A stretch of 64,000 nt of DNA, from assembly GCF_001677475.2 (NCBI RefSeq), contig NZ_CP015229.1, one strand, 5' to 3'. A program made the position numbers. This document shows positions 18,001-21,000 of the stretch, piece by piece (position 1 is the first letter of the stretch; every line of letters starts with the position of its first letter). The stretch comes from Escherichia coli (GTDB lineage: Bacteria; Pseudomonadota; Gammaproteobacteria; Enterobacterales; Enterobacteriaceae).

Positions 18001-21000
18001 TGTATCTGTCGCGGTGACAGTAAAGCCAGGAATGAAATAGCCAGATGCCGCACCCAGGGCAGTAAATAAAAAAACAAAACCCCGGCTGGGGGAACAGTCC
18101 GGGGTTTTTAGTTTTCACGCCTTGAAAGGAGCAAGGGAGAACCTGTGGTCGATTTTAGCAAATTGATTCGGGAGTTGCGACTAATGATTAAGCAATTACC
18201 AAACTGGAAATTCATCATGCTCTGGCTGGTGATGTTTATCGCCTCTGTTGGCTACCTGATTGGGCAGATTCGCTGGTGGTGATATGAACCGCATTCTGTA
18301 TATGGTCATTATTGCCCTGCTGTTGGTTTGTGGTGCGCTGTGTCTGGCAACAAACCATTACCGCGATAACGCCATCACTTACAAAGCGCAGCGCGATAAA
18401 AAAGTCAGTGAGCTGAAGCTGGCGAACGCCACCATTACTGATATGCAGCAGCGCCAGCACGATGTTGCTGCGCTCGATGCAAAATACTCGAGGGAATTAG
18501 CCGATGCGAGAGCTGAAAATGAAACTCTGCGTGCTGATGTTACCGCTGGTCGTAAGCGCCTGCGGATCAACGCCACCTGTCCAGGCTCCGTGCGTGAAGC
18601 CACCGCCACCGCCCGCGTGGGCAATGATGCCAGCGTCGAACTCTCTCCAGTTGCTGGACGAAACGTTCTCGGTATCAGAGACGGAATCATCAGCGACCAG
18701 GCAGCATTGAGAACGCTTCAGGAATATATCCGTACTCAGTGCCTGAAATAGTTTTTTCAATGCGTTGTATCGTCGCCGTATTTCCGCATTAACAGAGACC
18801 GCAGCCCTACGGGGAGACTCCTCTGCGCGAGTGTGCGGGGATAATCAAAAACGATACACACCGGGGTTTACTGCGTTAACGGAGCGCGGCGTTGTCCCCT
18901 CATAGTCGCCTGGCCGGTGCGATGGTGGAAGAAACCGGAACACATTACAAAATGATAACAATTATCATTTTTCGGGTCCTCCTGGCGGGGTGGGCCTGTA
19001 CACGGGGCGGGTCGGCGCGGAAAAAAGCGCATTTTTGTGATTTTATCGTCATCATCATCATGTATGTAAACTGTTGTTTTTAATGTAATTGATACAAAAA
19101 AGATGATGATTGTGGCCAATTTTTGTTCGACATCTTTGTGTGGCGGCATTTCTTTACAAAAAAACAGAATCACTTCTGTTCAGAGGGGTATGTGGAGGAG
19201 GCGTAGATGGACGGCGAGCTGAAAAATATGAAGTTAAATATTAATCAACTGGCAGCCCTTTCAGGCCTGCACCGGCAGACCGTTACCGCAAGAATGGCGG
19301 ATGTTCCTCTTGCTCCGGGCAGTAATGAGAAGAAAAAACTTTATCTCCTGACGGACCTGATTACTGCGCTGCTGGCAAAAACACCATCTACCGAAGATGA
19401 GGAGATGAATCCACACGATCGCAAGGCATGGTATCAGTCCGAGCGCGAGCGTCTTAAATTTCAGCATGAAACTGTTCAGCTTGTCCCTGTCAGTGATGTC
19501 AGGCGGTCGTTTTCCGTCGTGGTGAAAGCCATTGTGCAGATACTGGAAACCTGGCCTGACAGGCTGGAGAGGGACAGGGGGTGGACTGCATCACAACTGA
19601 ACGAAGTGCAGATCGTTGTTGATGAGATCCGTGACACGCTGGAAAAGGCAGTGATTGCCTGCTGTGATGAGGCTGATATGTGAATCCGGTTAACGAGTGC
19701 CATAGCCGCGCATCCGATATCTGGCGCGAAGTGGCCTCGCTGTTTCGCCCGCCTGGCCGGTTACCAGTAGCGGAAGCCATCAGGCGTTATATGCGGGTAC
19801 CACGGGGAGCCAACACTTCAGGTCCGTGGGAGTCATCGCTGACGCCCTATATGATTGACCCCATTAATACATTATCAGCCCGTGAATATGACGCGGTGGT
19901 GTTTGTCGGACCGGCGCGAACCGGGAAAACCGAAGGGCTGATTGATGGCTGGATTGTGTACGGCATCATCTGTGATCCGGCGGATATGCTGGTGGTGCAG
20001 ATGACTGAGACGAAGGCGCGTGAGCATTCCAGAACGCGTCTTTCCAGGACGTTTCGCCACAGTCCGGAGGTCAGTAAGCGCCTCAGTCCTTCCCGTAATG
20101 ACAACAACGTCCACGACAAAATGTTTCTTGACGGCTCATTCCTGAAAATTGGCTGGCCGTCGATCACCGTATTTTCCTCCTCGGATTACCGTCGTGTGGC
20201 GCTGACGGATTATGACCGTTTTCCTGAGAACGTCGACGGTGAAGGGGATGCCTTCACGCTGGCATCAAAGCGTACCACCACCTTTATGTCCTCGGGGATG
20301 ACCCTGGTCGAAAGTTCGCCCGGGCGGGATATCACCGATACCAAATGGCGTTGTGGTGGCGCACATGAGGCACCGCCAACAACGGGGATCCTGTCACTGT
20401 ATAACCGGGGAGACCGCCGTCGGTGGTACTGGCCGTGTCCGCACTGTGGGGAATATTTTCAGCCGGTGATGGATAACATGACCGGTTACCGGAATAACCC
20501 TGATTTTGTGGCTGCCGGGCAGGCGGCCCGCCTGATGTGTCCGCACTGCCGCGGCCTGATTGCTCCGGAACAGAAGCGTGAACTGAATAACCAGGGGATC
20601 TGGCTGCGGGAAGGCGAACGGGCAGCGGCGGATGGCAGTATTACCGGAACCCCTCGAAATTCCAGAATAGCAAGTTTCTGGATGGAGGGGCCGGCAGCGG
20701 CGTTTCAGACCTGGGAACAACTGATTTTTAAGCTGCTGGCGGCAGAAGAAGAGTATGAGCGAACCGGCAGTGAAGAGACCCTGAAAGCGGTGGTAAACAC
20801 CGATATCGGACGACCCTATCTGCCCCGTTCAGCCACGGAACAGCGTAAAAGTGAACTGCTTGAACAGCGTGCCGAGCCGTTTCCCCGGCGATCTGTGCCG
20901 GATGGTGTGCGTTTTATTGAGGCAACGGTTGACGTACAGGGCGGTAAAAATCGCCGTTTTGTTGTGCAGATCACCGGATACGGAGAACAGGGGGAACGCT

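Follow-up and report, generated by a model that had tools for sequence, protein, structure and literature searches.

A predicted lambda-type cos site in an Escherichia coli prophage with a Fur-box-like palindrome beside cosQ

Positions 18949–19142 of the DNA analysed here, a 64,000-nucleotide stretch from Escherichia coli (hereafter the window), are supported by sequence comparison as a lambda-type cos site of a lambda-like prophage. Its elements follow one another in the order palindrome, 5 bp, cosQ, 24 bp, cosN, cosB, terS and terL, and cos site and palindrome together are a new example of elements that are already known. The account we consider probable joins the two: the site is the cos of a lambda-like prophage, and its palindrome is the Fur-type member of a cosQ-adjacent element, to which Fe2+-Fur dimers would bind. 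The published work on Fur sites at nohA and nohB of E. coli K-12 and that on lambda cos concern identical DNA, and among the papers searched neither literature cites the other. In lambda itself, and in about half of the phages related to it, a strong Fur site stands 5 bp from cosQ.

The cos site is flanked by the lysis cassette, whose Rz gene (+ strand) ends at 18751, and by the terminase genes, in a gap that is transcribed. Gene order is that of lambda here, running from Rz through a DUF1441 TerS, a gpA TerL and a gpW-like gene to the portal. The gene at the Nu1 position (19207–19683, + strand) encodes a small terminase subunit of the DUF1441 family (Pfam PF07278, E = 1.2e-48), whose Fels-1 homologue is annotated as a small terminase subunit, and the large subunit of gpA type (19680–21677, + strand) matches the Pfam families GpA_ATPase and GpA_nuclease with E = 1e-81 to 1e-84. 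The original prediction had placed a candidate cos site upstream of the small subunit gene. It is borne out by alignment of the segment with the lambda cos junction, which gives the common order palindrome, GGGTCCT and ACG|GGGCGG, and by the distance of 202 bp from the predicted left end at cosN to terS. The cosN-like sequence ACGGGGCGGGTCGGCGCGG does lie at 19002–19020 as given, and its spacing from the palindrome, put at about 35 bp, measures 33 bp. A chance likeness to cos and Fur elements would have only the shortness of the motifs in its favour; no shuffle reached the observed match, and the homology of the region to hundreds of phage cos regions already refutes chance, a reading to which we give next to no weight.

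Between the palindrome and cosN lies a heptamer overlooked in the earlier reading, GGGTCCT (18974–18980, + strand), which exactly matches cosQ, the packaging-termination subsite, of phages 21 and 434. The records of both phages annotate exactly these 7 bp as cosQ, and the suggestion that the palindrome could itself be cosQ is therefore set aside in favour of this separate heptamer 5 bp downstream of it. Wieczorek and Feiss (2001) reportedly established the 7-bp extent of cosQ by saturation mutagenesis. Descriptions of cosQ in the cos literature give it this length and call it highly conserved among lambda-like phages (PMC4669245). The spacer between cosQ and cosN (18981–19004, + strand) ends in a conserved ACG and is 24 bp long as against 23 bp in lambda, the natural range of the family being 22–24 bp.

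The core of cosN is the predicted 12-nt cohesive-end sequence GGGCGGGTCGGC (19005–19016, + strand). The sequence ACG|GGGCGG at 19002–19010 is identical to that of lambda, phi80, N15 and 21, so bases 1–6 of cosN are those of lambda, whereas bases 7–12 all differ (GTCGGC in the window, CGACCT in lambda) and the overhang is followed by the base pair GC rather than CG. Conservation of bases 1–6 with common variation in bases 7–12 has been described for cosN (PMC4669245), and one IMG/VR locus (L060) carries a cosN identical to that of the window; a version with a fully diverged right half is recorded here. The exact nick positions are predictions, the left one being placed by analogy with lambda. 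The right nick would be flanked by GC with a 12-nt overhang, or by CG with an 11- or 13-nt overhang, and since the right half of cosN is not of constant length in close relatives but differs by 1 nt, the right nick can be placed only to within about 1 nt, which leaves the overhang length uncertain too. For the related phage 4F5, the record (LR595868) begins 4 nt ahead of the homologous nick, and the cosN of this phage lacks 3 nt relative to mEp460, which suggests a physical DNA end near, and not exactly at, the predicted nick. The record of mEp460 was rejected as a map of cos, because it begins at terS rather than at cos and so carries no information about ends.

Downstream of cosN, inverted ATCATCATC/GATGATGAT repeats occupy the expected R3 and R2 slots upstream of terS. 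The R3-like arm ATCATCATCATGTATGTA (19051–19068, + strand) covers bp 47–64 from the predicted left end, compared with bp 50–65 for R3 of lambda, and the R2-like arm is its inverted copy TACAAAAAAGATGATGAT (19093–19110, − strand) at bp 89–106. Both repeats are conserved in relatives and co-vary with more divergent TerS proteins, and the R3-like arm is kept in VT1-Sakai-type relatives, Fels-1 and Kp4865-4. Between the arms lies an IHF-like site, AAACAACAGTTTA (19067–19079, − strand), a weak consensus match with 1 mismatch to WATCAANNNNTTR. It is the only such match in the region; the palindrome (18949–18971), for which an IHF site had also been suggested, contains no match to WATCAANNNNTTR with at most 1 mismatch. 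A possible R1-like element, TCGACATCTTTGTGTG (19127–19142, + strand), is a partial direct repeat conserved in close relatives and is assigned tentatively. By analogy with lambda, cosB would consist of inverted TerS-binding repeats around an AT-rich bend region, TerS bound there would position the gpA-type TerL for nicking at cosN, and cosQ would be required for cutting the downstream cos once the head is full.

The agreement with lambda thus extends from the palindrome, cosQ and ACG|GGGCGG, followed by terS and a gpA TerL, to inverted repeats of the R3/R2 type, near bp 50 and at bp 90–105, and a terS about 190–200 bp from the left end. The repeats of the window, however, are of the CATCATC type, with a sequence unlike that of lambda, and its DUF1441 TerS is not a close relative of Nu1. 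Among the closest counterparts are prophages of the VT1-Sakai (Sp15), Stx2-phage and Fels-1 types whose TerS belongs to DUF1441; they share 88–94% DNA identity with the window across 18935–19065 and have the same spacer class and cosB repeats. Differences from this group concern the centre of the palindrome, which is CA in the window and CC in most of these relatives, and the right half of cosN, which varies among them, including by 1 nt in length. The sources consulted apparently give no experimental map of cos for such sites, and the present comparison would locate cos for this widespread, toxin-carrying group of prophages with a DUF1441 terminase.

The palindrome is a Fur-box-like inverted repeat, AAAATGATAA-CAA-TTATCATTTT, at 18949–18971, with no strand assigned. 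It had been described as a perfect 17-bp palindrome, which does not hold: the reverse complement of the 17-mer ATGATAACAATTATCAT (18952–18968) is ATGATAATTGTTATCAT, the centre CAA is asymmetric, and within the 17-mer only the 7-bp arms ATGATAA and TTATCAT can pair. Flanking AAA and TTT lengthen the arms to 10 bp (18949–18958 and 18962–18971). Even when 2 mismatches are allowed, the 17-mer occurs once in the window, and it was found in none of 100 shuffles. The predicted likeness to the Fur-box core was confirmed, as 13 of the 15 positions of TGATAATCATTATCA match, which corresponds to 13 of the 14 specified positions of the 7-1-7 motif TGATAATnATTATCA; the core in question is TGATAACAATTATCA (18953–18967), and its single arm mismatch is a T-to-C change. 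In 200 block shuffles this score was never equalled, and the palindrome is the best Fur match within the 64 kb. The 19-mer form of the Fur box, GATAATGATAATCATTATC, matches at 15 of 19 positions on both strands with a 6-bp offset, a score that was reached in 33 of 200 shuffles and is not significant alone. Two overlapping 19-mers at this offset suggest that two Fur dimers could be accommodated. Classical Fur operators such as iucA, fepA-fes and fhuA combine consensus and overlapping sites with a 6-bp offset in the same way, but they overlap the −35/−10 elements of an iron-repressed promoter, whereas no promoter is detectable at the site in the window.

A TGATAAT-N-ATTATCA element is found 5–7 bp upstream of cosQ in lambda, 434, 21, phi80, N15 and VT1-Sakai (with TGATAACCATTATCA as its version of the core), and also ahead of cosQ in Klebsiella and Superficieibacter prophages. 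As judged by sequence, the palindrome of the window is homologous to this element, which, where present (roughly half of all lambda-type cos sites), occupies a fixed slot ahead of cosQ. Its frequency comes from a pooled set of 74 distinct cos-upstream sequences, made up of IMG/VR loci, genome and reference loci and the window; the IMG/VR scan used a pattern that leaves the palindrome out, GGGTCCT-N18-23-ACGGGGCGG. The slot matched at 10 or more of 14 positions in 41 of the 74 (about 55%). A species-wide genome scan was swamped by chance matches in high-GC genomes and contained at least about 8 true enterobacterial cos sites. Information content is about 0–0.5 bits at positions 7–14 upstream of the motif, 0.5–1.2 bits at the six positions adjacent to it and 1.4–2.0 bits inside it, where variation is confined to two central positions. 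Presence of the palindrome is independent of terminase type: at the sites that bear it, identity of TerS ranges from 36% to 100% with Nu1 and from 38% to 93% with TerS of the window. It is also dispensable, an accessory element, since about 45% of cos sites do without it, as do mEp460 and 4F5, which are functional phages.

The link to Fur comes from the K-12 prophages. The lambda palindrome recurs unchanged upstream of nohA in the Qin prophage, where its centre at −233 from nohA is the exact position of a published Fur site. That site scores 22.3 bits, is gel-shifted by 150 nM Fur and had been isolated by Vassinova and Kozyrev through in-vivo Fur selection and titration (Chen et al. 2007), and the copy in DLP12 has a Fur score of 25.3 bits (Chen et al. 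2007). Listings of the Fur regulon include both nohA and nohB. At nohA (Qin) and nohB/nohD (DLP12), the homologous element occupies the same slot, 5–6 bp upstream of cosQ, with GATAAT starting at −239 from the start codon of the Nu1 homologue. The K-12 versions (TGATAATCATTATCA, TGATAATTATTATCA) fit the 7-1-7 motif perfectly, whereas that of the window has one arm mismatch, and they face a leftward DUF3950 gene of a kind that the window lacks. We infer that Fe2+-Fur dimers bind the version in the window too. A full-text literature search returned no relevant paper connecting Fur with cosQ, Nu1 or terminase, or cosQ with a palindrome.

What the palindrome does beside cosQ can be read in several ways. 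It might be a packaging element, an extension of cosQ ("R4 region") read by terminase, portal or a host factor, with an incidental likeness to Fur boxes. The nearly fixed distance of 5–7 bp to cosQ, the place of the palindrome as the leftmost conserved part of the cos module, its travelling with cosQ across many TerS types and the phi80 record, which labels a whole 55 bp "cosQ; aka R4 region", all speak for such a role. Yet mEp460, 4F5 and the other cos sites without the palindrome are missing it altogether, an intrinsic terminator directly abuts cosQ in some prophages, and cosQ is a 7-bp site in the cos literature. Variation in the element moreover tracks the Fur consensus, with a free centre, TGA...TCA kept and, in the Klebsiella copy (L180), an extra GATAAT hexamer that yields an almost full 19-mer Fur box. 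We regard a packaging element as unlikely. An action at the RNA level, in which a weak hairpin and a U-run pause or terminate non-antiterminated transcription before cos, fits the hairpin of the window (−5.8 kcal/mol, z = −3.5), which is followed by TTTTT, and strong intrinsic terminators do fill the slot just upstream of cosQ in other prophages. The stem, however, is all A-U and weak, folding of the lambda and 434 versions does not surpass that of shuffles (z = −0.9 and −1.3), and symmetry-breaking variants such as TGATAATCACTCTCA come without compensating changes; this hairpin reading was rejected on these grounds and is very unlikely. The terminator scan does not call the palindrome and reports a single weak terminator-like site, which is far from it and on the minus strand. 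In addition, an Rfam search of 18600–19300 with E up to 1 gave no matches, and the conserved 194-nt upstream region folds like shuffles on both strands (z = −0.26 and +1.26).

A true iron-responsive operator, with a promoter directed leftward into accessory genes or rightward into terS, would make prophage genes respond to iron starvation; it would account for the in-vivo and in-vitro binding of Fur to the lambda/Qin version and for the listing of nohA and nohB in the regulon, and in Qin, DLP12 and 434 the leftward DUF3950 gene begins about 150 bp from the site. The leftward accessory genes in DLP12 and Qin are ylcI/ynfO and ybcV/ydfO. Against an operator, the promoter scan of 18700–19300 found no sigma-70 promoter-like site, and none overlapping the palindrome, and the window has no leftward gene, Rz on its upstream side being transcribed rightward. 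The upstream neighbour is absent or rightward in 21, phi80 and N15 as well, and a leftward promoter was rejected as a general explanation on account of these phages and the window. The cloned upstream region of nohA/nohB likewise has low promoter activity in a promoter fusion. With no promoter overlapping the palindrome and this low activity, a classical operator role is unsupported and appears doubtful; of the earlier proposal of a Fur operator, the Fur-type binding site is the part that stands, being the best-supported assignment of the palindrome, and the promoter overlap is the part that does not.

If Fur binds here, the Fur box beside cosQ could be an adaptive part of the cos module, overlooked by the packaging literature, that ties the phage to the iron status of its host as an insulator, a speed bump or a titration site. 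We give this possibility a low probability. Along one route, bound Fur would keep read-through out of the terminase genes while the lysogen is iron-replete. Our preferred, speculative guess is of this kind: Fur on the palindrome may act in such a lysogen as a roadblock or insulator, which would limit how much transcription from accessory genes upstream runs unscheduled into terS-terL, yet would let through both Q-modified late transcription and the translocating terminase. Along another, Fur bound 5 bp ahead of cosQ might serve as a speed bump that aids recognition of cosQ by the translocating terminase. A further route would be the titration of Fur by about 100 replicating phage genomes during lytic growth, which would lift repression by Fur from iron uptake and from toxin genes such as stx1. 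If the placement is functional, packaging or terminase expression in lambdoid phages, Shiga-toxin phages included, would be affected by iron status; if not, the element would clearly exemplify a phage module that takes the site of a host regulator along with it. At the Qin copy, the summit of an FNR ChIP-seq peak also coincides with the position of the nohA Fur site.

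The cos segment lies within the 456-bp gap that, by gene calls and Pfam, separates the Rz spanin gene (18260-18751, +; Pfam Phage_lysis) from the terminase genes. The Nu1 position is occupied by a DUF1441 protein of 158 aa (19207-19683, +; Pfam), followed by a large terminase of the gpA type (19680-21677, +; Pfam), a gpW-like gene and then the portal gene, and the gene order around the segment is that of the lambda late operon. None of the complete E. coli genomes in the collection is identical to the window (best match 98.3%), and its nearest phage relatives are Stx-converting prophages including VT1-Sakai, at ~88-94% identity.

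Alignment with the circularised lambda junction upholds the candidate cos site of the original prediction, with the same layout and an exact cosQ. Lambda reads gATGATAATCATTATCAc-tttac-GGGTCCT-(23 nt)-/GGGCGGCGACCT/CGCGG and the window aATGATAACAATTATCAt-ttttc-GGGTCCT-(24 nt)-/GGGCGGGTCGGC/GCGG, and ACGGGGCGGGTCGGCGCGG is found at 19002-19020, as predicted. The cosQ heptamer GGGTCCT (18974-18980), which had been overlooked, also occurs in the phage 21 and 434 records, where it is annotated "cos subsite; cosQ; termination of DNA packaging". According to the Feiss laboratory, the 7-bp cosQ is highly conserved (PMC4669245); bases 1-6 of cosN are conserved and bases 7-12 commonly vary (PMC4669245). 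The window cosN agrees with this pattern, since bases 1-6 are those of lambda (GGGCGG) and bases 7-12 are all different; the same version is present in IMG/VR locus L060. The nick positions in the window are predicted. Among very close relatives (L026, L031, L060, L067, L080 and L083) the right half of cosN shows substitutions and a 1-nt length change (GGGCGGGTCGGC, GGGCGGGCGGGC and GGGCGGAC-GGC), so that the right nick and overhang length are uncertain by ~1 nt, and one or the other must differ among these relatives. The sole physical hint to the nick position comes from the record of the related phage 4F5 (LR595868.1), which ends in ...GGTGGCCTG and starts with CCACGGGGCGGG, 4 nt ahead of the homologous nick. 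In the same record (L006, L007) cosN is 3 nt shorter than in mEp460 (L001; GGGCGGGAGCGCGG vs GGGCGGGAGCGGCGCGG); the gap and the early start probably arose as artefacts of assembly where the DNA physically ends.

Downstream of cosN, an R3-like arm ATCATCATCATGTATGTA (19051-19068; bp 47-64 from the predicted left end) and an R2-like arm TACAAAAAAGATGATGAT (19093-19110; bp 89-106) form an inverted repeat with an IHF-like site (1 mismatch) between them, in positions equivalent to those of lambda R3 (bp 50-65) and inverted R2. These cosB repeats are kept in VT1-Sakai-type relatives, Fels-1 and a Klebsiella phage, and are altered in a pair of relatives whose small terminase subunit (TerS) is only 72-75% identical, the behaviour expected of TerS-binding sites. 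The window cos adds a member to the lambda cos family; it falls in the VT1-Sakai/Fels-1 subgroup, its TerS is a DUF1441 protein and the right half of its cosN has diverged. Its subsites are assigned the roles established in lambda: TerS would bind the R repeats, spanning an IHF-type bend, the gpA-type large subunit (TerL) would nick cosN, and cosQ would enable terminal cos cutting. The Salmonella phage Fels-1 (L012, ~300-410) has a degenerate cosQ, AGGTACT in place of GGGTCCT, and a degraded form of the palindrome discussed below, and retains ACGGGGCGG and an R3-like repeat CATCATCATCATG.

Just upstream of cosQ lies ATGATAACAATTATCAT (18952-18968), its sole occurrence in the window at up to 2 mismatches (0/100 shuffles). 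It had been described as a perfect 17-bp palindrome, which is only partly confirmed: position and inverted repeat stand, and perfection does not, because the 7-bp arms ATGATAA/TTATCAT enclose a non-symmetric CAA centre. Counting flanking A/T runs, the arms reach 10 bp (18949-18958 and 18962-18971). The proposed likeness to a Fur box is borne out: the 7-1-7 motif TGATAATnATTATCA specifies 14 positions and 13 of them agree, the top match in the 64 kb and equalled by none of 200 shuffles; the classical 19-mer is matched at 15/19 on both strands with a 6-bp offset, a score reached by 33/200 shuffles and thus common by chance. Two other suggested identities fail: cosQ is the separate heptamer GGGTCCT, and a consensus search found no IHF match in the palindrome, which is therefore not an IHF site.

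The same arrangement exists in E. coli K-12: in each of the cryptic prophages Qin and DLP12 a lambda-type cos site precedes the Nu1 homologue, nohA or nohD (= nohB) respectively. In both, GATAAT(C/T)ATTATC begins at -239 from the start codon and is therefore centred at -233. At -233 of nohA lie two overlapping Fur sites that score 22.3 and 12.6 bits at a 6-bp spacing and that Fur at 150 nM shifted in gels (Chen et al. 2007, PMC2189734), the fragment having first been obtained by in-vivo Fur-binding selection (Vassinova and Kozyrev 2000, per PMC2189734); the nohB site, at 25.3 bits, is one of the three strongest genome-wide (Chen et al. 2007, PMC2189734). An FNR ChIP-seq summit at 1634625 falls on the nohA Fur site, and the locus is in the Fur-bound list (PMC3688515). 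That summit (Qin, ~1634624, older coordinates) sits on the Fur palindrome and not on the predicted FNR site ~90 bp off; several further FNR peaks in the literature likewise lie on Fur sites. The Qin copy is the lambda sequence, identical through cosQ, so the lambda version binds Fur. Our literature search found no paper tying the nohA/nohB Fur site to cosQ, Nu1 or terminase. Judged by sequence, the window palindrome is a new version of this known site, and with one arm mismatch to versions of proven binding it is rather likely to be bound by Fe2+-Fur.

Anchored on cosQ, TGATAA-nn(n)-TTATCA is found 4-7 bp upstream in all ten phages or sequences listed: lambda (ATGATAATCATTATCA), 434 (ATGATAATTATTATCA), 21 (GTGATAATTATTCTCG), phi80 (TTGATAATTATTATCA), N15 (TCGATAACTATTATCG), HK225 (GTGATAATTATTATCG), an Stx1 phage (CTGATAACCATTATCA), VT1-Sakai (ATGATAACCATTATCA), Klebsiella phage Kp4865-4 (ACGATAATCATTATCT) and the window (ATGATAACAATTATCA). 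It carries no feature label in the otherwise detailed records of phages 21 and 434. IMG/VR was scanned with GGGTCCT-N18-23-ACGGGGCGG, a pattern that excludes the palindrome so that sampling was not biased towards it; pooling IMG/VR, genome and reference loci with the window gave 74 distinct cos-upstream sequences, 41 of which (55%) carry the element (at least 10/14 match in the slot just upstream of cosQ). Information content per position is ~0-0.5 bits 7-14 nt upstream of the motif, 0.5-1.2 bits at the six adjoining positions and 1.4-2.0 bits within the motif, where variation is confined to the two central positions and the values are inflated because every profiled sequence was preselected at ≥10/14 motif match. 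The element accompanies TerS proteins whose identity is 36% to 100% with Nu1 and 38% to 93% with the window TerS, and therefore moves with cosQ, not with a particular terminase specificity. A scan of genomes across species gave mainly chance matches in high-GC genomes; among the matches listed, the element occurs in Escherichia albertii, Superficieibacter electus and a Klebsiella species, whose copy GATAATGATAATTACTATC is nearly a full 19-mer Fur box. The conservation of this Fur site beside cosQ, in lambda itself and across genera, may be under-appreciated; it opens to experiment a possible tie of iron status to packaging or terminase expression.

What the palindrome does is a matter of weighing. 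An accessory packaging role would suit its place beside cosQ, and the element is not generally required for cos, because the slot holds an unrelated inverted repeat, CGTCAG-N10-CTGACG, in plaque-forming mEp460 (L001) and 4F5 (L007) and unrelated sequence in other prophages. As a neutral passenger of the cos module it would simply travel with cosQ. Variants TGATAATCACTCTCA and TGAGAATCATTATCA disrupt the dyad symmetry with no compensating changes, which favours a protein-binding site over a hairpin; the RNA fold is weak (-5.8 kcal/mol in the window, and no better than shuffles for the lambda and 434 versions). A true iron-responsive operator would accord with Fur binding at nohA; our promoter scan of the window region found no recognisable promoter overlapping the palindrome, and the region upstream of nohA/nohB, when cloned, showed weak promoter activity (PMC1802558). 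Control of a leftward promoter is plausible in Qin, DLP12 and 434, where a leftward DUF3950 gene starts ~150 bp from the site, and is not a general explanation because no leftward gene adjoins the site in 21, phi80, N15 or the window.

Our preferred guess, a speculation, is an insulator or roadblock, because strong intrinsic terminators abutting cosQ occupy the same slot elsewhere (L025, L076, L131 and the second site of L060; e.g. GGCCGGAGAAATCCGGCTTTTTT). Terminase made in an iron-replete lysogen could cleave the cos of the prophage itself, and such a roadblock would there shield terS and terL from upstream accessory-gene transcription.

Contigs with two cos sites also occur: L060 (reverse-complement cosQ at 11545), L049 (1798-1832, +; 2707-2742, -) and L076. 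Downstream of one L060 site is an ORF of 93 aa that has no relation to TerS, and the opposed sites of L049 lie beside an AlpA-like regulator and capsid genes; these contigs may be phage satellites (PICI-like) borrowing a helper's cos. Between Rz and the palindrome, a GC-rich stretch of ~200 bp (18752-18945) is ~88-90% conserved in ~400 phage records, mostly Stx phages; it contains no convincing ORF, an Rfam search gave no match, and RNA structure is not in excess on either strand. Further upstream, a pertussis-toxin S1-like ADP-ribosyltransferase gene (15404-16129, +; Pfam Pertussis_S1, E = 5e-15) adjoins a gene for a subunit with weak similarity to pertussis S2/S3 (16140-16622, +; E = 2e-4, below the Pfam cut-off). 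The two resemble the gene pair of an ArtAB or pertussis-like AB5 toxin, and this candidate pair (15404-16622) lies directly upstream of the lysis cassette, the stx position in Stx phages.
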